From positions 1,984,001 to 2,048,000 of the forward strand of contig CBDBCY010000004.1 of assembly GCA_965203555.1 (NCBI GenBank): 64,000 nt of DNA. The letters are read 5' to 3'. Position numbers and translations under genes: made by a program. Under the pieces are notes generated by a model, which saw only the letters and a list, made by a program, of their open reading frames with translations, did not search any database and had not been told where the DNA came from. Positions 3,413-57,616 of the stretch are shown piece after piece (the first letter of the stretch is position 1; each line of letters opens with the position of its first letter). Origin of the DNA: Acidimicrobiia bacterium. Its GTDB lineage: Bacteria > Actinomycetota > Acidimicrobiia > Spongiisociales > ZC4RG35.

Positions 3413-7818
<4,406 letters not shown>

Positions 7819-10472: not shown

Positions 10473-10670
10473 TCCCCTTTCATTAAGAATTCAATTTAAA
10501 AATAATGGGCGTAGTAACAGTAGGTGCTGTCGACTGTCCACACCTTGGCGGTATCGCTGGCGAATGCTGGGCGAACTACAAAGATGTTTGTATACCGGCA
10601 TACGGAGCTGTGGTCCTTGTCGGAGCGGCTGTGAACATATATGGCGCGACGTGGTCATTGCTTGTTGATA
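10473..10670. other. Replication origin oriC (dnaA-dnaN intergenic)
   Basis: AT-rich tract at about 10478-10506, DnaA-trio run TAGTAACAGTAG (10512-10523), overlapping boxes CTGTCGACT/CTGTCCACA (10527-10542), and further degenerate boxes (TGTGAACAT, TGTTGATAG). This matches the box/GC-linker/trio/AT layout of the B. subtilis unwinding module. Confidence 0.8.
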
Positions 10671-12055
10671 GCGTTGTATATACCGTTGACCCGTCCGGCG
10701 AACTGGCGATCGCCGGAGATTTGGGAGAGGATGCGTCGGTGCGCGGAAAGCACAGTGGAGTGTCCCCTGCGAAACGCGGTACCGATGCGAGCGTATGGCA
10801 ATCCGGTGATTTCACGGGTGAGGTACATCGCGACTTGGCGGGCGGCGGACGGTATCGGGCGTCGATTATGGTTAAGAATTTCCTCGACGGTGGTCCCGAA
10901 CTCCTGCGCGCAGGCCGCGATGATATTTTCTGGGGTTTGCGCCACCGATGCCAAGCCCGACATAGGAGCCAGGTGTTGAAGAGCGGCCTCCGGCGTGACA
11001 GGAAGTTTCGTCAGGTTTGCGTAAGCGTACAGTTGGCGTAGTGCGCTGGCTAGGTCTCGGATGTTGTGTGTGAACTGGTCTGCGATGATCCGGAGGACAC
11101 TGTCGTCCAGGGACATCCGGCCCGTGTCCTGAAGCCGATGCAGAATCGCCATTCGCGTTTGTAGATCCGGCGGAACGATCTCGGTGATAAGACCTGCCGA
11201 GATGCGGCTTCTGGTACGGTCGGAGACGGCAGTGAGGTCTCGAGGGGGACGATCGCAGCCCAGAACAATGTGTTTGCCTTCGTTGTGAAGGCTGTCGAAG
11301 GTCCAGAAGAATTCCTCCAGGGTCTGTTCCTTGCCTTGCAGGAACTGGAAATCGTCGAGTATCAGCATGTCCACCTGCCGGAACCTTCTTCGGAAGGCTT
11401 CCATTTGTCGTTTACCAACGCATTGAATGAAGTCTTGGACGAACTTTTCCGAAGTGCAATAACTAACGGTCAGGTCCGGTCGGCGTGCTCGGGCGCGGTG
11501 GGATATGGCCAGCAGAAGGTGGGTTTTACCGAGCCCGGATGCGCCATAGATGAAAAGAGGGTTGTAACGATCCCCGGGACTTTCTGCCACGGAGGTTGCC
11601 GCCGCATATGCGAACAAATTGGAAGACCCCACCTCAAAGTTGTCGAAGCGGTGGCGATTGGCGGGATGCCGGGGGCTGGGTACGGGCGGGCGCCGCCTAT
11701 CCGGCGCCTTCGAGACGGCGGGAAGAGTAGTTTTGGGAGGTTTGGGTCTGGGCTCGATGCGGTCGGGGTTGACAGTTACCCGGATTCGGGCGGGGAGGTC
11801 GGCGCCCGCGGTTTTTGCTGCCGACTCGACCTGCGATAGGAACCTGCTTAACACTTGGTTGGCCACGAAGCGACTGGGCGCCTCCAAAAGAACTTCCGAT
11901 GACGTTAGGGAGATGTGGATGTCCTTGAACCACCGGGACCAGTCATCCGGAGAGGTGCGGGCGGTTAGCACCTCTCGGAAGATAGTTCGATCAAGACTGG
12001 GGGCGGACGGGGTCAAGGCAGGTTGTCTCCGGGCCTGTGAGCCAAGGCCACCCAT
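10655..12055 (-). CDS. dnaA: Chromosomal replication initiator DnaA
   Basis: FDNFEVGSSN, YNPLFIYGASGLGKTHL, LILDDFQ, RQVAMYL; divergent domain IV signature RGHSTVLSA. Confidence 0.96.
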   Translation of the reverse strand: MGGLGSQARRQPALTPSAPSLDRTIFREVLTARTSPDDWSRWFKDIHISLTSSEVLLEAPSRFVANQVLSRFLSQVESAAKTAGADLPARIRVTVNPDRIEPRPKPPKTTLPAVSKAPDRRRPPVPSPRHPANRHRFDNFEVGSSNLFAYAAATSVAESPGDRYNPLFIYGASGLGKTHLLLAISHRARARRPDLTVSYCTSEKFVQDFIQCVGKRQMEAFRRRFRQVDMLILDDFQFLQGKEQTLEEFFWTFDSLHNEGKHIVLGCDRPPRDLTAVSDRTRSRISAGLITEIVPPDLQTRMAILHRLQDTGRMSLDDSVLRIIADQFTHNIRDLASALRQLYAYANLTKLPVTPEAALQHLAPMSGLASVAQTPENIIAACAQEFGTTVEEILNHNRRPIPSAARQVAMYLTREITGLPYARIGTAFRRGHSTVLSAHRRILSQISGDRQFAGRVNGIYNAINKQ

Positions 12056-49889: not shown

Positions 49890-51134
49890 TTGCCAACGGC
49901 CTTTAGGAGCGAAAGGTATGGAAAGCCAGTGATCGAAGAGTCGGGTTCCGGCATGCTTCGACTCCGAAACGGTCAGGCCGTTTTCGACCACTTTGTCGAA
50001 GCCGGCAGCCAAACCATCTCCCGGGCCGAACTTGCCCGCCTGACCGGACTGTCAAAGCCCACGGTGAACGCGCTGGTGTCCGACCTGGAGAAGTCGGGAG
50101 TGGTGAAACTGATTCCCTCCGTCCAGACCCGCGGCCGGATCGGTAGGCCGGCGGCTTCTTACCAATTGGCGGCTGACGCGGCCATGGTGGTGGGTGTCGA
50201 CATGGGAGCAACGAAGACCCTGGTGGGAGTCGCGGATCTGCTGGGAGAGGTGATAGCCGTGGAGCGGATCGAGACCGCACCCCACGCAAGGGCGGCGGTT
50301 GACGGGGTGGTGGCCACCACACGTCGTCTGCTGGAGGGCCTTGGGGAGCGGGCTTGCCGGCTCGAGGGCGCCTGTGTAGGAGTTCCGGGCGTCTACCGGC
50401 CCGAGTTGGACCGAGTGGAAATGGCGCCCAACCTGCCGGGGTTCGGGGATCTGGCGATCGCGGCGGAGTTGTCGAGGCAACTGGGGATTCCGGTGAGCAT
50501 TGAAAACGACGTCAATCTGGCCACTGTGGGAGAGGCGAATGCCATGACCGGGGAGGGGGTAAGGGATTTTGCGGCCATCTCGATCGGAACCGGGATCGGT
50601 ATGGGGATGGTCCTGGACGGGGAACTTTATAGAGGCGCCCATGGGGCGGCCGGCGAGATCGGGTCGGTAAAGCTTCCCCGGGTGGGCGGTGACGTGTTTC
50701 ACGCTCTCACGCTGGAGGACGTGGCGTCGGCGCCGGCTATCCGCAAACTGTTTCACCGAGCGGTCGAGGCCGGGCATCGTACCGGTTTGAACGGTGACGT
50801 CGACGTGCCCGCCATTTTCTCCGCTTCGGCCCAGGGGGACGAGGCAGCGAGGGCGGCGCTTCGCATAGCGGCCGACTCGGTCGCTTTTGCAACGTCCTAC
50901 TTCTGCTGGGTAAATGACCCCGCCCTGGTGGTGTTCGGGGGAGGCGTAGGCGCCAATCCCGTTTTTGTGGAGGCGGTAAGAGCGCGGATCGGACGCTACC
51001 TGACGGTGGTTCCGGAACTGGTGCCTTCCACTATCGGTGGACAAGCCGCATTTTTGGGGGCGGTCTCCACGGCGCTCTCCTCGGTGCACAAGTCGTTGGT
51101 CACCAGGCGACTGGGACGAAGGAGCGGGAGATGA
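49890..51134 (+). CDS. ROK family transcriptional repressor (start uncertain: 49890, 49929 or 49953)
   Basis: N-terminal HTH SRAELARLTGLSKPTV, GRP, GVDMG, ENDVN, GTGIG, GAAGEIG. Confidence 0.93.
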   Translation: MPTAFRSERYGKPVIEESGSGMLRLRNGQAVFDHFVEAGSQTISRAELARLTGLSKPTVNALVSDLEKSGVVKLIPSVQTRGRIGRPAASYQLAADAAMVVGVDMGATKTLVGVADLLGEVIAVERIETAPHARAAVDGVVATTRRLLEGLGERACRLEGACVGVPGVYRPELDRVEMAPNLPGFGDLAIAAELSRQLGIPVSIENDVNLATVGEANAMTGEGVRDFAAISIGTGIGMGMVLDGELYRGAHGAAGEIGSVKLPRVGGDVFHALTLEDVASAPAIRKLFHRAVEAGHRTGLNGDVDVPAIFSASAQGDEAARAALRIAADSVAFATSYFCWVNDPALVVFGGGVGANPVFVEAVRARIGRYLTVVPELVPSTIGGQAAFLGAVSTALSSVHKSLVTRRLGRRSGR

Positions 51135-52390
51135 AGAACGCGGCGGCCGTCATCGCCGCCGCGGTCGATGCCGACTCTCTGGTCGACCTGGTCCGGGATG
51201 CGGTGCGGATTCCCAGCATCACCGCGGATGAAGGGCGTTTCGCCGATTGGGTGAGAAGCCGGCTGGAAGAGGGTTGCTGGCACGAGGTCGATCAGGTGGA
51301 GGTGGAGCGGGGCCGCCCGAATGTGTATTCACGGGCAGGCGCCGGAGAGCATGGAACCCGGTCCCTGGTGCTGGCCGGGCACCTGGACACTGTCCATGCC
51401 GAAGACTGGACACAGGAGTGGAGAGGCTCTGATCGTGACGATCCGTTCGCCGGTCAGGTTGTCGACGGGGAGATTTGGGCGAGGGGAGTAACCGACCAGA
51501 AGGGAGGGATCTGCTCCATCATCGAAGCGGTTCGGGCGATCTATCGGGCCGGATACCGACTGAGGGGGTCGGTGATCGGATTGTTCGTATGCGATGAGGA
51601 GTCCGGCCAGCCGGGAAGCGGGGTCTCCCTGGGGATGCGAGCCGCAGTCAAGGAGCTCTTGGAAGGCTCTGGTAGCCCGCCCGACTTTGCGATCTACACA
51701 GAGCCCACCACCGGCGCCATCTACACCGCCCAGATGGGATTTCTGATAGCCGACATCACCCTGGTGGGCAAGTCTGCCTATTTTGGCAGGCCCGAACTGG
51801 GAGTGGACGCGCTGAAGGCAGGGCACGCCCTGCTCGGTGCTCTGTGGGATCACAACGAGACGCTGTCTACGGGAGAAGCCCACCACCTGCTGGGAGAGCG
51901 GTTCCTGCTGGTGACCACGGTCGGGTCGGGGGGTAACATCGCCGTGCCCGGAAAGTTCGAACTGTCGCTCATTCAAAAGTTCCTGCCCGGGGATGACCTC
52001 GATGCGGCGGCCACGGCCTTGCGGGAGATCACCGCCGGAGTCGCCGAAGAGCACGGGGTCTGTTCCGAGGTGGTCTTCTCCGCTCCGAGAGATCACTCGG
52101 TGGGGGGTACCCCCGATGAGATATCGGCTAATCATCCGGGTGTGCTTGAGTTGGCCGGCGCCATCGAAGCGACCGGCGGCCGGCAGGCGAGAATCGAAGG
52201 AGCGCCCTACTGGTCGGAGAAACCGATGCTTCGGTCGGCAGGCATTCCAGGCGTCTACTTCGCGGCAGGTGATATCGCCACCTGTCACACACCTTTTGAA
52301 CGACTACCGATAGAGGATTTCGTGTCTTTGACCCGTGCCCTGGCCTACTTCGTGGCGTCGTGGTGCGGGGTGGAGAAGTCCGCAACCTAG
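51131..52390 (+). CDS. M20 family metallo-hydrolase (ArgE/DapE-like deacylase)
   Basis: GHLDTV, RG..DQKGG, DEE, EPT, C-terminal H..E. Confidence 0.9.
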   Translation: MKNAAAVIAAAVDADSLVDLVRDAVRIPSITADEGRFADWVRSRLEEGCWHEVDQVEVERGRPNVYSRAGAGEHGTRSLVLAGHLDTVHAEDWTQEWRGSDRDDPFAGQVVDGEIWARGVTDQKGGICSIIEAVRAIYRAGYRLRGSVIGLFVCDEESGQPGSGVSLGMRAAVKELLEGSGSPPDFAIYTEPTTGAIYTAQMGFLIADITLVGKSAYFGRPELGVDALKAGHALLGALWDHNETLSTGEAHHLLGERFLLVTTVGSGGNIAVPGKFELSLIQKFLPGDDLDAAATALREITAGVAEEHGVCSEVVFSAPRDHSVGGTPDEISANHPGVLELAGAIEATGGRQARIEGAPYWSEKPMLRSAGIPGVYFAAGDIATCHTPFERLPIEDFVSLTRALAYFVASWCGVEKSAT

Positions 52391-52398
52391 GAGGAACC

Positions 52399-54603
52399 AT
52401 GAAAGGAACCCGCAAATACAAACGCAATACATCCGCAAGGTGGCTCATAACCGGTCTGGTGGCAGTGCTCAGCCTGGTTGCGGCGGCTTGCGGCGACGAT
52501 GCCGAGGGCGAAACCACTACTACCCGGGCCGCCGCCGAAGCCACCACTACCCAAGCACCTGCTACGACGGAAGCTCCTCCAGAGCCTGTGGCGCCGGTTA
52601 CTCAGGGGCCTGGTGGTGAGGAGGCTACCGCGTCGGGTGAGATTGTTTTGAGTGGTGATGAGATTGCGCAGGTGCAGTCTGGGGGGTATACGGCGGCTTT
52701 GCTTTGGCATACGGCGGGTGCTTTCACCGATGCGGTGAGTCAGGGTGCTCGGGATGCTTTTGCCGAGTTGGGTATTGAGGTGATTGCCGAGACGAATGCT
52801 CAGTTTGATGCTGCTCAGCAGGCCAATGATGTGGAGACTGTGTTGGCGCAGGATCCTGATGTCATTATCAGTTTGGTGATTGATCCGGTGTCGGGCGCGG
52901 AGGCGTTCCGTCCTGCGGTCGAGGCCGGGGTGCAGTTGGTGTTCTTGAGCAATGTGCCCGAGGGCTATGTGCACGGTGTCGATTATGTGGGGGTGGTGAC
53001 CGATGATCTGGCTGCGATGGGGATGGCGGCTGCGGATTTGTTGGCTGATGCGTTGGGCGGCTCCGGGGAGGTGGGTTTCATCTTTCATGATGCTGCCTAT
53101 TACGTGACCAATCAGCGTGATCAGGCGTTCAAGACTTGGATCGAGCAGCGTTATCCGGGGATCGAGATCGTTTCTGAGCAGGGGTTGGCTGATCCGGCTG
53201 CTGCTGAGGAGATCGCGGCTACGTTGTTGACGCGCAATCCTGATCTTGATGGTATTTATGCGCCGTGGTCGGCTGGTCCGGCCGACGGGGTGTTGGCTGC
53301 TTTGCGGGCGGCTGGTGCTTCTGATGTGGCGGTGGTGACTTTGGATCTGGATACCAATGTTTCGTTGGACTTGGTGGAAGGCGGGAATGTGGTTGGTATC
53401 GCGGCGGATGAGGCGTATGCGCTGGGACGGACCATGGCGTTGGAGGGTGCTTACGGTCTGTTGGGCAAGGACGCTCCTCCGTTTACGGTGGTACCGGCGA
53501 TCGCAGTGACCGCTGACAACATCGTGGATGCCTACCGCCGGTCACTGGCCACCGACCCACCTCCCGAAGTCATGGCCGCACTCGGCGAGTCCGTGCCTGT
53601 GGCGCCGGTTACTCAGGGGCCTGGTGGTGAGGAGGCTACCGCGTCGGGTGAGATTGTTTTGAGTGGTGATGAGATTGCGCAGGTGCAGTCTGGGGGGTAT
53701 ACGGCGGCTTTGCTTTGGCATACGGCGGGTGCTTTCACCGATGCGGTGAGTCAGGGTGCTCGGGATGCTTTTGCCGAGTTGGGTATTGAGGTGATTGCCG
53801 AGACGAATGCTCAGTTTGATGCTGCTCAGCAGGCCAATGATGTGGAGACTGTGTTGGCGCAGGATCCTGATGTCATTATCAGTTTGGTGATTGATCCGGT
53901 GTCGGGCGCGGAGGCGTTCCGTCCTGCGGTCGAGGCCGGGGTGCAGTTGGTGTTCTTGAGCAATGTGCCCGAGGGCTATGTGCACGGTGTCGATTATGTG
54001 GGGGTGGTGACCGATGATCTGGCTGCGATGGGGATGGCGGCTGCGGATTTGTTGGCTGATGCGTTGGGCGGCTCCGGGGAGGTGGGTTTCATCTTTCATG
54101 ATGCTGCCTATTACGTGACCAATCAGCGTGATCAGGCGTTCAAGACTTGGATCGAGCAGCGTTATCCGGGGATCGAGATCGTTTCTGAGCAGGGGTTGGC
54201 TGATCCGGCTGCTGCTGAGGAGATCGCGGCTACGTTGTTGACGCGCAATCCTGATCTTGATGGTATTTATGCGCCGTGGTCGGCTGGTCCGGCCGACGGG
54301 GTGTTGGCTGCTTTGCGGGCGGCTGGTGCTTCTGATGTGGCGGTGGTGACTTTGGATCTGGATACCAATGTTTCGTTGGACTTGGTGGAAGGCGGGAATG
54401 TGGTTGGTATCGCGGCGGATGAGGCGTATGCGCTGGGACGGACCATGGCGTTGGAGGGTGCTTACGGTCTGTTGGGCAAGGACGCTCCTCCGTTTACGGT
54501 GGTACCGGCGATCGCAGTGACCGCTGACAACATCGTGGATGCCTACCGCCGGTCACTGGCCACCGACCCACCTCCCGAAGTCATGGCCGCACTCGGCGGA
54601 TAA
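52399..54603 (+). CDS. Sugar ABC substrate-binding lipoprotein with two identical binding modules
   Basis: RBS GGAGG, lipobox AAAC, Thr-rich linker, RbsB-like (type I periplasmic binding) module repeated twice in frame. Confidence 0.9.
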   Translation: MKGTRKYKRNTSARWLITGLVAVLSLVAAACGDDAEGETTTTRAAAEATTTQAPATTEAPPEPVAPVTQGPGGEEATASGEIVLSGDEIAQVQSGGYTAALLWHTAGAFTDAVSQGARDAFAELGIEVIAETNAQFDAAQQANDVETVLAQDPDVIISLVIDPVSGAEAFRPAVEAGVQLVFLSNVPEGYVHGVDYVGVVTDDLAAMGMAAADLLADALGGSGEVGFIFHDAAYYVTNQRDQAFKTWIEQRYPGIEIVSEQGLADPAAAEEIAATLLTRNPDLDGIYAPWSAGPADGVLAALRAAGASDVAVVTLDLDTNVSLDLVEGGNVVGIAADEAYALGRTMALEGAYGLLGKDAPPFTVVPAIAVTADNIVDAYRRSLATDPPPEVMAALGESVPVAPVTQGPGGEEATASGEIVLSGDEIAQVQSGGYTAALLWHTAGAFTDAVSQGARDAFAELGIEVIAETNAQFDAAQQANDVETVLAQDPDVIISLVIDPVSGAEAFRPAVEAGVQLVFLSNVPEGYVHGVDYVGVVTDDLAAMGMAAADLLADALGGSGEVGFIFHDAAYYVTNQRDQAFKTWIEQRYPGIEIVSEQGLADPAAAEEIAATLLTRNPDLDGIYAPWSAGPADGVLAALRAAGASDVAVVTLDLDTNVSLDLVEGGNVVGIAADEAYALGRTMALEGAYGLLGKDAPPFTVVPAIAVTADNIVDAYRRSLATDPPPEVMAALGG
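52584..54598. repeat. Tandem direct repeat, 2 x 1004 bp (52584-53587 and 53595-54598; period 1011 bp = 337 codons)
   Basis: No mismatch seen by eye between copies; the identical shadow-ORF segments starting at 53088 and 54099 confirm the 1011-bp period. Confidence 0.95.
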
Positions 54604-54646
54604 CCTTCCATGAACAGCTGATCGCATAGGGAAACGGTCGCAAGAG

Positions 54647-55660
54647 ATGAGAGCCCATGTCCTGGCCGGCGTCGCCACCCGGTTGAGGCAGGCATGGGCC
54701 AGACAGAGCGACGACGGCGGGTTTCGACGTTACGTGGTCTATTTGGCCTTCGTTTCGATTCTCGCCGTCTTCGCTCTCATGCTGTGGGACGATGGTTTCC
54801 TGAGTTGGTCGAATCTTTTGAACATCGGCCGCCAGGCAGCGCCGATCGCGGTCATGGCGGTGGGTATGGCCTTCGCCCTGGCCTCGGCGGAGATAGATCT
54901 TTCGATCGGATCGACCGTGGCGCTCTCCTCGTTGGTTGCCGCAGTAGTGGTCGGCGACCATGGATTCCTCATCGGAGCGCTGGCGGCGGTGGCCGTGGGT
55001 GCACTGGTGGGGCTGGCGAACGGCCTGATCACCGTCAAGATACGGATCCCATCCTTCCTGGTGACGCTGGGGATGCTGGGGATCATCAGCGGGATTGCCC
55101 GCAACATGAACAATCTGCAGTCGATGCCGATCAGAAACGACGCCTTCTCCGCCCTGTTCGGCGCCGGGTCGCTGGGTCCTGTCTCGTCTTTGGTGATCTG
55201 GACCGCGGTGGCCTTTGCCTTGGGCCACTTTGCACTGCACCATCTGCGGTGGGGAAGGCATGTGCTCGCCACGGGGGCCAATCGGGCGTCGGCCAAAGCG
55301 GCCGGCCTCAATACCGACCGGATTCGGATCAGCGCCCTGGTGGTCAGTTCGGTGGCTGCCTCCTTCGCCGGGGTGCTGCTGGCTGGGCGTCTGGCCATCG
55401 GCCGCCACGACCTGGGAGAGAACGATCTGCTCACCGTGATTGCCGCGGTGGTGATCGGTGGTACCAGTTTGTTCGGCGGACGCGCGTCCATCGCCGGCGC
55501 GGTGACGGGCGCCCTGATCATGGCGATGCTCAACAATGGATTGATTCTGATGGGCCTCGAGGTGGCGGACCAGTTGATCGCCCGGGGGCTCATCATCATT
55601 GTGGCGGTGGCTCTGAGCATGAGGGCGCCGTCGGAAAGCGTGGGTGACGATGTTCCTTGA
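54647..55660 (+). CDS. Sugar ABC permease (RbsC-like)
   Basis: IDLSIGS, IPSFLVTLG, G.N...A..AG, IAAVVIGGTS.FGG. Confidence 0.95.
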   Translation: MRAHVLAGVATRLRQAWARQSDDGGFRRYVVYLAFVSILAVFALMLWDDGFLSWSNLLNIGRQAAPIAVMAVGMAFALASAEIDLSIGSTVALSSLVAAVVVGDHGFLIGALAAVAVGALVGLANGLITVKIRIPSFLVTLGMLGIISGIARNMNNLQSMPIRNDAFSALFGAGSLGPVSSLVIWTAVAFALGHFALHHLRWGRHVLATGANRASAKAAGLNTDRIRISALVVSSVAASFAGVLLAGRLAIGRHDLGENDLLTVIAAVVIGGTSLFGGRASIAGAVTGALIMAMLNNGLILMGLEVADQLIARGLIIIVAVALSMRAPSESVGDDVP

Positions 55661-56852
55661 ATCTCTGATCGGAAGGAACCGGGCCTTTCTGGAGGCCGCG
55701 GTACGGCTTCACCAGGAAAACCGGATTCCGGCCAACAGTTATGTGCTTGACCTGGACGCGGTGGAGTCGAACGCTCGCCTCATGACAGCTGAGGCTCACC
55801 GCCGTGGCTTGACGGTGTATGCCATGAGCAAACAGGTCGGACGGGCCCCGGGAGCGCTTGACGCGATCACCAGGGGTGGGGCAGACGGTTATGTGGCGGT
55901 CGACATGGGATGCGCCCGGCCCATTGCCGCCAACGGACACGCAATCGGCAATCTCGGACATCTGGTGCAGATCCCGCGAGCCGAAGCGGCCGAGGCTGCG
56001 AGCCTGGCCCCGGAGTATTGGACCATCTTCTCCCGCAACAAGGCGGTTGAGGCTTCACGGGCAGTAGCAGCCCAGGGACGCAGGCAAAAGGTGCTATTGC
56101 GGATTTGGGAACAGGGCGATGTCTTCTATCCGGGCCACGAGGGCGGGTTTCACCTTGATGAACTCTGCCAGGCGATCGACTTCGTCAACGGTCTGCGGGG
56201 ATTGCAATTCGCAGGACTCACCACCTTTCCGGCCCTGCTTTTTGACGGGGCGGCGAAAAAGGTGAACCCCACTGCCAATGTCGAAACGCTGGCTCGGGGG
56301 GTGGAGGCTGCTCTCGGCCACTTGGGCTCGGGCTTTGCCATCGAAGTCAACGCTCCCGGGACCACCTCCACGGCGGTGCTGGATGTGCTGGCAGAGGTTG
56401 GCGCCACCCAGGTGGAACCGGGGCACGGCCTAACCGGCACCACCCCTTTGCATGCGGTGGAGGAGCTTCCCGAACAGCCTGCAGTGCTGTACCTGACGGA
56501 GGTGGCCCACGTTCATCAGGGAGTGCCCCTGTGTTTTGGAGGGGGGTTCTATGTGGATCCGGTGTTCGAGCCTTATCCAACCACCGTTGTGGCTGCCGCC
56601 GGGCCAGAGGATGTGAGCCGGCAGCGGGTGCCGATCGACATGCCGGATCCGGCCGGTATCGACTATTACGCGCGGCTCCACCCGGAGGGTCGGGTGCTGC
56701 GGGAGGGCGACACCGTTATCGCCGGCTTCCGCATCCAGGCTTTCGTCACCCGCTCTCTGGTGGTGGGCGTGACCGGCGTCCGCGCCGGCGCCCCGGTGGT
56801 GGCCGGGATCTGGAATGTGGAAGGGGCGCCGGTCTCCTGGGGTGGCGGATGA
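55650..56852 (+). CDS. YhfX-like PLP-dependent enzyme (alanine racemase fold III)
   Basis: MFL..L...N, YVLDLD, YAMSKQVGR (PLP lysine), GHLVQIP, YPGHEGGF, EPGHGLTGTTP, YLTEV.H, GGGFY. Confidence 0.85.
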   Translation: MFLESLIGRNRAFLEAAVRLHQENRIPANSYVLDLDAVESNARLMTAEAHRRGLTVYAMSKQVGRAPGALDAITRGGADGYVAVDMGCARPIAANGHAIGNLGHLVQIPRAEAAEAASLAPEYWTIFSRNKAVEASRAVAAQGRRQKVLLRIWEQGDVFYPGHEGGFHLDELCQAIDFVNGLRGLQFAGLTTFPALLFDGAAKKVNPTANVETLARGVEAALGHLGSGFAIEVNAPGTTSTAVLDVLAEVGATQVEPGHGLTGTTPLHAVEELPEQPAVLYLTEVAHVHQGVPLCFGGGFYVDPVFEPYPTTVVAAAGPEDVSRQRVPIDMPDPAGIDYYARLHPEGRVLREGDTVIAGFRIQAFVTRSLVVGVTGVRAGAPVVAGIWNVEGAPVSWGGG

Positions 56853-57616
56853 CGGCGCCTGCTCTCTCGGTGCGCAACATGTCCAAGTCGTTTCGGGCCG
56901 TGCAGGCCCTGGACGATGTGTCGTTGGACCTGCGCCCCGGTCGGGTTACGGGACTACTGGGAGACAACGGCGCCGGTAAGTCCACCCTGGTCAAATGCAT
57001 CGCCGGGGTGTACCAGGCGGATGCGGGGACGATCAGTATTGATGGAGCCGTCCATCGGATCTCGTCTCCGGATGCGGCGCGCACCCTGGGCGTGGAGACC
57101 GTACATCAGAATCTTTCGCTGATAGACAGCCTGAATGTGGTGGAGAACCTGTTCTTGAACCGGGAATACACGCGGGGCGGTCGTTTCGGCGCCAGGATCG
57201 GCTTCTTGAACAAGAGGCGAATGCATAGAGAGTGCAAAGCGACCCTGGCCAGGCTCGACATTGCCATTCCCTCGATGCGCCGACCGGTTGGTCTGCTTTC
57301 GGGAGGACAGCGCCAGGCCATCGCGATCGGCCGGGCAGTGGCATGGGGACAACGGATCGTGCTCTTGGACGAACCCGCTGCCGCCCTGGGAGTGGAACAG
57401 GCGCAAAGGGTCATGGATCTCATTCTTTCCCTGCGAGACGCAAGGGTGGCTGTTCTGCTGATCACTCACAACATGGATCGCGTCACCGCAGTTTGTGACA
57501 ATGCCGTAATTCTGCGTCAGGGCCGCAAGGCTGCCGAGGTTGAAGTCAGCCGGGTGAGCAAGGATGACTTGGTGGCCTTCATAACCGGGGCCAAATCTGA
57601 TCAACAACCGGCCTGA
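56849..57616 (+). CDS. Sugar ABC ATPase (single domain)
   Basis: GDNGAGKST, LSGGQRQ, LDEP.AALG, ITHN. Confidence 0.95.
   Translation: MTAPALSVRNMSKSFRAVQALDDVSLDLRPGRVTGLLGDNGAGKSTLVKCIAGVYQADAGTISIDGAVHRISSPDAARTLGVETVHQNLSLIDSLNVVENLFLNREYTRGGRFGARIGFLNKRRMHRECKATLARLDIAIPSMRRPVGLLSGGQRQAIAIGRAVAWGQRIVLLDEPAAALGVEQAQRVMDLILSLRDARVAVLLITHNMDRVTAVCDNAVILRQGRKAAEVEVSRVSKDDLVAFITGAKSDQQPA

Follow-up and report, generated by a model that had tools for sequence, protein, structure and literature searches.

The window analysed here is a stretch of 64,000 nucleotides from the genome of an Acidimicrobiia bacterium (GenBank assembly GCA_965203555.1; 3.42 Mb, 62% GC), taken from positions 1984001-2048000 of contig C4 (CBDBCY010000004.1). 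The subject of the analysis is a gene of this window for the predicted sugar-binding lipoprotein of an ABC importer, in which two identical tandem units, each coding for one binding domain, are written very largely in codons ending in G or T. The bases G and T are termed keto and A and C amino, and G+T3 is the share of third codon positions being G or T (A3, C3 and T3 are used likewise for single bases). The signature is a gene-specific, inherited keto loading of the sense strand; in this lineage, whose members are associated with sponges and corals, it amounts to 98% in tuf and to 74-84% in three genes for binding proteins.

The longest open reading frame (ORF) at the locus runs from 52360 to 54603 on the plus strand, and an ATG at 52399 was picked by eye as its probable start. 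One unit matched Pfam family PF13407 (Peripla_BP_4) with E=3e-36 and 125.7 bits, the curated cut-off being 35.1. The repeat period is 1011 bp, equal to 337 codons, and both copies lie in frame inside one ORF. The parts of the gene, in window coordinates, are:

52399..54603, + strand: whole gene for the lipoprotein-like sugar-binding component of an ABC importer, coding for two Peripla_BP_4 domains in tandem (ORF and translation)
52399..52583, + strand: putative signal peptide, lipobox-like motif and T/A/E/P-rich linker, unique and without the G/T signature (G+T3 0.42)
52584..53587, + strand: repeat copy 1, 1004 bp, 100% identical to copy 2
52585..53514, + strand: G/T-ending codon run of unit 1, 310 codons (G+T3 0.842, A3 0.013)
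53515..53595, + strand: C/A-ending tail of unit 1, 27 codons (G+T3 0.30, C3 0.56)
53588..53594, + strand: junction, 7 bp, the coding part of '..ALG-ESV-PVAPVT..'
53595..54598, + strand: repeat copy 2, 1004 bp, 100% identical to copy 1
53596..54525, + strand: G/T-ending codon run of unit 2, 310 codons (values identical to unit 1)
54526..54600, + strand: C/A-ending tail of unit 2, 25 codons (G+T3 0.24)

Over the 310 codons of the unit core (52585-53514) the third-position frequencies are A 0.013, C 0.145, G 0.471 and T 0.371, and leucine is encoded by TTG at 20 of its 28 codons in one unit. G+T3 is 0.42 over the N-terminal 62 codons (52399-52584) and 0.52-0.55 in four flanking operon genes, and the second tail together with the following spacer (54526-54646) has a keto fraction of 0.41. 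All 55 other ORFs of the window lie within 0.40-0.58. Genome-wide ORFs were taken from a caller that scored codon positions 1 and 2 only, and its antisense picks (two doubled genes and one A/C-rich gene) were corrected by hand; a 243-aa ORF listed as G/T-rich is therefore spurious. Over 2298 ORFs of at least 150 codons the genome mean of G+T3 is 0.50 (sd 0.06); the whole target ORF, at 0.757, ranks fifth, and of the four that outrank it one is spurious, being an antisense frame. Windows of 60 codons with G+T of at least 0.85 are present in only 25 of 2788 ORFs, and the target holds 283 such windows.

A preliminary description of the window, made from the letters alone, had reported G/T-ending, A-poor units, a unique 5' part and flanking operon genes free of the signature, a switch to C/A endings at the end of each unit, and a strand-specific bias. 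These figures bear it out on each point, the sense strand being the one depleted of C and A. Its wording that the signature is absent from all neighbouring genes holds for the window but not for the genome, where tuf and others carry it.

The lipobox-like motif VAAAC was read by eye from the translation ('...LSLVAAAC-GDD'). The linker-coding part contains a 27-bp tandem repeat of 1.9 copies at 52501-52552, which fits slippage as the mode of linker evolution. The neighbouring genes, assigned by Pfam, are:

49890-51134, + strand: ROK-family protein, ordinary codon endings (G+T3 0.55)
51131-52390, + strand: M20 peptidase, ordinary codon endings (G+T3 0.52)
54647-55660, + strand: BPD_transp_2 permease, ordinary codon endings (G+T3 0.55)
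55644-56852, + strand: YhfX-like protein, ordinary codon endings (G+T3 0.54)
within 56531-57616, + strand: ABC ATPase

The doubling and its homogenisation

Read evidence consisted of contigs from three DNA runs of three studies, designated X1, which may be the source sample, X3 (coral metagenome) and X4 (sponge metagenome). The unit forms a separate 1004-bp unitig in X1, X3 and X4, at 3.1x, 2.15x and 2.1x flank depth respectively, and the junction is bridged in all three by a 67-bp contig (53558-53624). The X1 unit contains no alternative letters; the X3 and X4 units differ from the window at 8 and 6 sites, yet in each both copies are one unitig. Doubled orthologues were found in 6 relatives in a first search and at 9 of 77 loci in a wider one, independent complete assemblies included. 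The preliminary description had named tie-breaking by the assembler among polymorphic copies as its alternative explanation. An assembly artefact, whether a false duplication or a consensus systematically choosing T and G, has a negligible probability on this evidence: nothing in its favour turned up, no mixed alleles accompany the clean unitig and its junction contig in three studies, and the doubling recurs in assemblies made independently. As a separate observation, X1 shows the unit at 3.1x flank depth and the junction contig at 1.6x, depths that hint at a three-copy variant in some cells.

Within a genome the two copies are 100% identical in 6 of 10 doubled genomes, 99.6-99.9% in three and 91.6% in one; units compared between genomes are 68-93% identical. 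The junction peptide, 'ALGE' followed by a short linker and 'PVAPVT', recurs in 9 of the 10 doubled loci. Identity within genomes (at least 99.6% in nine of ten) thus exceeds identity between genomes while the junction is held in common, as expected of concerted evolution. The locus thus goes back to a single old duplication, after which the copies evolved in concert and single-module forms arose secondarily; gene conversion keeps the two copies identical. The earlier statement that the repeat is old and has nevertheless stayed homogenised is upheld.

Concerted evolution by gene conversion is familiar from tufA and tufB of Salmonella and E. coli. The likeness lies in copies that are identical over exactly the homologous tract, here the tuf pair and the two binding-protein units; conversion, however, explains identity and not direction, and those model organisms are not known to show G/T-only codon usage.

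Tandem substrate-binding domains are also described in the ABC importer GlnPQ (bioRxiv 10.1101/2020.12.19.423572, PMC8025302). As far as the accessible part of that account goes, GlnPQ resembles the present protein in having two binding domains in one ABC-importer polypeptide. It differs in that its domains are fused to the membrane subunit and have differing specificity, whereas here two identical domains sit on a predicted lipid anchor, and a single genome has nine such genes, from different families of binding proteins.

The signature and repetition

In-frame tandem doubling of an entire domain is found in nine genes of this genome for lipoprotein-like binding proteins, and there is also one doubled protease-like gene. 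The nine are:

C1 24784-26835: doubled binding-protein gene
C4 757862-760447: doubled binding-protein gene
C4 1073189-1075411: doubled binding-protein gene
C4 1196610-1198787: doubled binding-protein gene
C4 1533620-1535893: doubled binding-protein gene
C4 1710306-1712591: doubled binding-protein gene
C4 2276660-2278771: doubled binding-protein gene
C4 2313922-2315982: doubled binding-protein gene
window 52399..54603: the gene described above

Copies within these genes are 89-100% identical, and the two genes that were checked are doubled in sister genomes too. Pfam returned two stretches each in the doubled TctC, Peripla_BP_2, OpuAC and second Peripla_BP_4 genes; of the remaining doubled genes three were labelled by eye and one is without a Pfam match. 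Only three of the nine are G/T-rich (the target, 0.80; Peripla_BP_2, 0.76-0.77; TctC, 0.74-0.75). The other six have a G+T3 of 0.40-0.58 and include pairs of copies that are 100% and 99.8% identical. The state is specific to the gene and heritable: among 7 same-genus genomes 6 have a G/T-rich doubled TctC gene (0.72-0.82), and the doubled Peripla_BP_4 gene without G/T endings is at 0.42-0.50 in all 8 loci. In the TctC orthologue of genome G014 (L143), with 95% amino-acid identity, both copies are ordinary (0.53-0.54), so that loss or gain of the signature is possible inside a genus and affects both copies together.

Orthologues of the target gene were examined in relatives, the named ones being sponge-associated Acidimicrobiia metagenome-assembled genomes (Candidatus Spongiisocius, Ca. 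Poriferisodalis and Ca. Aldehydirespirator). The first 12 same-genus loci, single or doubled, all have a G+T3 of 0.65-0.78 with neighbours at about 0.5. In the wider set 24 of 77 loci are G/T-rich (0.62-0.85), among them single-module genes of complete chromosomes; in chromosome-level assemblies such genes have values of 0.80 (L026), 0.85 (L018), 0.75 (L049), 0.67 (L030) and 0.62 (L032).

The strongest case is tuf. Its two copies (C4 162257-163453 and 198395-199591) each contain 378 consecutive G/T-ending codons, with G+T3 0.98 in both, A3 0.00 and C3 0.01. They are identical from -14 to +1201, so that identity tract and G/T tract nearly coincide, and the 14 nt upstream of tuf are also keto-loaded. 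G+T3 falls to 0.70 in the last 20 codons, and the next 100 nt are keto-poor (0.39 and 0.31), A-rich and T-poor. The fusA gene, which ends 13 bp upstream of tuf, has a G+T3 of 0.50 overall, 0.58 over its last 100 codons and 0.70 over its last 40. The genes rpsL, rpsG and fusA as wholes are ordinary (0.49-0.55). Among relatives tuf is at 0.97-0.99 in 12 same-genus loci, and several further families of the order have values of 0.84-0.95; L091-L093, L095, L096 and L115 have ordinary values (0.42-0.57), and this holds without L095 and L096, which come from unpublished genomes.

Two further kinds of carrier lie outside the doubled genes. A 388-aa single-copy gene is G/T-rich over its full length. 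A 'HlyD-like' label considered for C4 1295343-1296509 was abandoned as unsupported, with matches to 0 Pfam families. In three histidine-kinase paralogues with 67% DNA identity the share of G/T endings declines smoothly along the gene, starting at about 90% on the 5' side and finishing at about 15% on the 3' side, and the first of them lies on the lagging strand yet is G/T-loaded. All have the order GAF-PAS-HisKA-HATPase-REC-Trans_reg_C (Pfam was run on one):

C4 2901975-2904344, - strand: kinase paralogue
C4 212965-215571, + strand: kinase paralogue
C4 284141-286543, + strand: kinase paralogue

Turnover was measured at four-fold sites in the 21 pairs of 7 same-genus genomes, which are not independent of one another, and was modelled with two-state classes calibrated on the flanks, taken as neutral. 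Four-fold sites differ at a proportion of 0.25 in the unit core and 0.48 in the flanks, and G<->T differences per G/T site are 0.16 and 0.18. Core C<->T differences average 12.05, where 23.8 are expected if only the C-to-T rate were raised and 16.2 under fixation bias (S ~2-3); the observed number is below the mutation-only expectation in 21 of 21 pairs. On this model the unit is not hypermutated, and pure hypermutation is rejected; changes away from G/T are suppressed while G<->T exchange runs at a neutral pace. Such suppression fits selection, conversion bias, or a mutation regime that exposes the sense strand and protects the template strand alike.

Because their G<->T divergence agrees, core and flanks share age and history, which argues against transfer. 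Retention of a donor's codon usage in foreign DNA is very improbable for this and other reasons, for neighbouring genes and operon context are kept in relatives, the native tuf has the bias and the signature stops inside the gene. The atypical usage itself, and a protein unusually conserved at 79-97% identity across several named sponge-symbiont genera, are what would speak for it.

The preliminary description had attributed the bias to a repeat-associated mutagenic process loosely analogous to fungal repeat-induced point mutation (RIP), and had proposed single-module orthologues as a check on that idea. Single-module orthologues in complete genomes do carry the G/T bias, and the idea falls by its own check. 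RIP in fungi acts on repeats only, changes C to T on both strands, lowers GC, and leaves the copies destroyed and diverged. The present case resembles it in being a directional base change in duplicated DNA, but frames are intact and open, copies are 100% identical, the change is strand-specific with an A-to-G-type component as strong as the other, and four-fold divergence in the unit is half that of the flanks. The bias is moreover not confined to duplicated DNA: single-module orthologues (0.62-0.85), tuf (0.98), the non-repeated kinase genes and other unique genes carry it, and six of the nine doubled genes are spared. The RIP-like reading finds no support: single-module orthologues carry the signature, most doubled genes lack it and the unit is not hypermutated. 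The signature is very probably not induced by repetition; judging from these comparisons, it is vertically inherited and marks particular genes, not repeats.

Character of the bias

The tRNA set is ordinary, with 47 genes and G34, C34 and U34 anticodons. (ARAGORN also predicted a tRNA-His with anticodon ATG next to the normal GTG one, and a tRNA-SeC.) In tuf, NNC codons have nearly all given way to NNT (NNT to NNC 29:0 for Asp, 15:1 for Ile and 12:1 for Phe), four-fold families mix G and T endings (Gly GGT 29, GGG 18; GCG and GCT likewise), and leucine is TTG at 34 of 34 codons. Arginine AGG stands at 5 of 30, no more than the genome share, and serine AGY at 0 of 11; because these codons are not favoured, A is avoided as much as C. 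Classical adaptation of highly expressed genes to the tRNA pool is highly unlikely in view of these counts, since NNY codons are read by G34 tRNAs only and the endings GGG/GGT and GCG/GCT are mixed, and since rpsL, rpsG and fusA are unaffected. In its favour are the position of tuf as the strongest case and the presence of C34 tRNAs for all NNG codons; A-ending codons are also generally few in expressed genes of GC-rich bacteria. Adaptation to tRNAs fails to account for shifts at codon positions 1 and 2, or for the mirror state that the same binding-protein gene takes where tuf has stayed as it was.

At position 2 the keto content of tuf genes goes up from about 0.46 to 0.55 and at position 1 from 0.53 to 0.66, and across 75 binding-protein orthologues position 1 tracks position 3 (r=0.92). 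The force acts on the nucleotide and not the codon: C and A disappear from every site that can do without them, also at codon positions 1 and 2.

Its polarity is always G/T-rich 5' and then A/C-rich 3'. The genome-average G+T3 declines along genes from 0.54 to 0.47, and over 1456 long ORFs the G+T3 of the 5' third minus that of the 3' third has a mean of +0.028 (sd 0.086), a maximum of +0.57 and a minimum of -0.17. Several multi-copy insertion sequence (IS) families follow the same course, the last 60-codon windows of their transposase ORFs being only 5-15% G/T and their 5' parts G/T-rich. Examples are at C4 2688337-2690160, 1150592-1152022 and 833868-835145, the element at 2688337 having DUF772 and DDE_Tnp_1 over two ORFs.

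Whole orthologues can be reversed. L022-L024, L031, L033 and L034, at 87-90% amino-acid identity, are mirror images of the target, with third positions of, for example, A 0.22, C 0.59, G 0.16 and T 0.03. Codon maps of L022, L023, L031 and L034 show G/T endings for the first ~40-60 domain codons and A/C endings after them. In these sister lineages the binding-protein gene is mostly A/C-rich and tuf is G/T, still at 0.97 in four genomes with a mirror-image gene. That the G/T and A/C versions differ by transitions alone was considered and rejected: across 123 four-fold sites, G is matched by C in 46 cases and by A in 11, which offers no pointer to the mechanism. An A/C-ending ORF is present in the genome itself at C4 1005774-1008188 (+), an 804-aa secreted repetitive ORF (GS-, P/N/D-rich) with A3 0.28, C3 0.47 and T3 0.06; it has no Pfam match and its antisense frame is open.

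Replication direction does not account for the bias. Leading-strand genes have a mean G+T3 of 0.524 and lagging-strand genes 0.465, the co-oriented neighbours of the target are at 0.52-0.55, and the sense-strand G+T excess is independent of replication strand, as in transcription-associated asymmetry. Repeated DNA does stand out in one respect: among 300-bp windows of extreme keto skew 62% are repeated DNA, as against 6% of background, an enrichment of about 10x. This whole-base measure mixes codon effects with amino-acid composition (linkers, low-complexity sequence) and was used for the repeat-enrichment figure only.

Explanations of the strand bias

We tentatively infer, at somewhat under even odds, a pressure on the sense (non-template) strand that is tied to the direction in which transcription mostly runs. 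Where DNA is transcribed very heavily, its non-template strand would lose C and A, and its template strand would be shielded or repaired; the force is directional and not hypermutagenic. G/T runs would then be marks of strong sense transcription, and A/C runs, such as the unit tails and the mirror-image orthologues, would be places dominated by antisense transcription or another 3'-end process. This reading is favoured because the bias is symmetric for both transitions and blind to codon position, is reversed inside genes and from one lineage to another, and spills over into the end of fusA. Contigs of RNA from a coral metatranscriptome cover the gene from 52367 onward and leave the M20 gene uncovered; these data are contigs only, without strand, level or ends, so that the M20 gap and the start at 52367 serve as hints only. 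A smaller asymmetry of this kind has reportedly been seen in E. coli by Beletskii and Bhagwat and by Francino and Ochman, namely an excess of C-to-T changes on the non-transcribed strand with transcription-coupled repair of the template. The two cases agree in a G/T-enriched sense strand and in being tied to the gene and not to replication direction. They differ in scale (84-100% of third positions here, a few percent in the known system), in that A loss here is as strong as C loss, amino acids are changed and only a handful of genes are concerned, and in the reversal to A/C in 3' parts and whole orthologues.

Several observations weigh against a cause in transcription. The first 62 codons lie on the RNA contig that starts at 52367 yet are not G/T-rich, and they count against it because a promoter-proximal effect of transcription should peak there. 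The run begins at the start of the repeat unit in all three G/T-type binding-protein genes, and extreme keto-skew windows are enriched in repeated DNA as given above. The ordinary endings of rpsL, rpsG and fusA mean that expression, if it were the cause, would have to be far more extreme in the carriers than the data could show. Depletion of A in the unit core is at least as strong as that of C (odds shifted ~13-fold and 6.4-fold), whereas spontaneous deamination of single strands would favour the loss of C. Finally, the low turnover (12.05 observed, 16.2 expected) fits selection or conversion bias at least as well.

The close rival is selection on the message, by which very abundant mRNAs are kept poor in C and A; it is a real possibility, though a less probable one than a pressure from transcription. 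The gains could be escape from a C-directed RNase E, less loading of Rho, and fewer damage-prone amino bases in single-stranded RNA; the C-rich tails of ~75 nt would be sites of processing or termination, and A/C versions would be messages selected to be short-lived. The carriers, EF-Tu and the binding proteins of transporters, are indeed classic cases of abundance, Rho and an RNase E/G homologue are both encoded in the genome, the tails of 25-27 codons are rich in C (C3 0.56), and the C<->T count of 12.05 is nearer the expectation of fixation bias (16.2, S ~2-3) than that of mutation bias (23.8). The ordinary TctC gene of G014 (L143; G+T3 0.53 at 95% amino-acid identity) is as would be expected after relaxed selection. 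Mycobacterial RNase E cuts just 5' of cytidines and limits transcript decay for at least 89% of genes (PMC10641625), which would give a reason for long-lived, C-poor messages in Actinomycetota; the accessible part of that report draws no link to codon usage, and the avoidance of A and the A/C-rich versions are left unexplained by it. A is avoided as strongly as C (in tuf AGG 5 of 30, AGY 0 of 11), so that a C-directed nuclease or Rho alone is insufficient, and the A/C runs of 285-300 codons in orthologues and kinase genes call for an account of their own. Selection on the message must also accommodate ribosomal-protein genes and a fusA that are unaffected and a bias that leaks into the last 40 codons of fusA. 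A strand-biased process linked to repeats or recombination, a wider form of the idea in the preliminary description, is improbable. It would involve recurrent conversion with single-strand damage, or unequal handling of G-T and A-C mispairs, for which the actinobacterial NucS pathway is a candidate. Much of the geometry would suit it: the identical tract of tuf (-14 to +1201) is nearly its G/T tract, the run starts at the unit start in three of three G/T-type binding-protein genes, extreme-skew windows are 62% repeated against 6% of background, and several IS families have the same G/T-to-A/C polarity. The two transitions are shifted to a similar degree, which an asymmetry between G-T and A-C mispairs would predict, NucS is present, MutS domain V was not found in the genome (95% complete), and conversion bias would also yield low turnover. 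It is opposed by six of nine doubled genes without the signature, including those with 100% and 99.8% identical copies, by single-module orthologues that keep it (S 2.4-2.7), by kinase paralogues that carry the gradient at 67% DNA identity, too diverged for conversion, by the single-copy 388-aa gene G/T-rich throughout, and by copies that lack the divergence or decay seen under RIP.

A more general proposal, which is speculative and about as doubtful as selection on the message, is an undescribed, heritable and switchable marking of genes by strand polarity, keto or amino, perhaps present in many bacteria. The loading would extend to each site at which the protein can bear it and would be kept by a directional force (S ~2 to 4 or more), G/T first and A/C second, and would set or record the allowed direction of transcription, for example if only G/U-rich RNA escaped Rho and a C-directed RNase E. 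One lineage would then have a given transporter gene in the 'on' (G/T) state, and its sister lineage would have that gene 'off' (A/C).

Synonymous sites are usually viewed as the product of genome-wide mutation bias and mild tRNA-linked selection, and a handful of genes here depart from that view under a pressure strong enough to alter ~9% of EF-Tu second codon positions. Literature searches, partly aimed at codon bias, returned no account of G/T-only codons in tuf or binding-protein genes, or of the codon usage of these symbionts. A transcription-linked asymmetry of mutation or repair, if true, would be by far the strongest natural example, and would offer a sequence-only read-out of the hardest-transcribed genes and their direction in uncultured symbionts; selection on the message, if true, would be an unrecognised rule for mRNA survival or termination in Actinomycetota. 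G/T-loaded genes in any case mislead gene callers through open antisense frames, mimic foreign DNA and distort tuf phylogenies. The nine doubled, concertedly evolving binding-protein genes are an unexplained transporter architecture in sponge and coral symbionts.

Two observations concern the assembly at large. The window contains dnaA at 10655-12055 (-), with a Bac_DnaA domain match at 11183-11659, and the minimum of the cumulative GC skew of the chromosome lies at about window position 6000; because both fall inside it, the window likely spans the replication origin, with the terminus near C4 0.40 Mb. Contig C3 (20.7 kb) is 95-98% identical to C4 2095529-2116094 over almost its full length; it could represent a haplotype left unmerged, an element that has been excised, or the version carried by a second strain.

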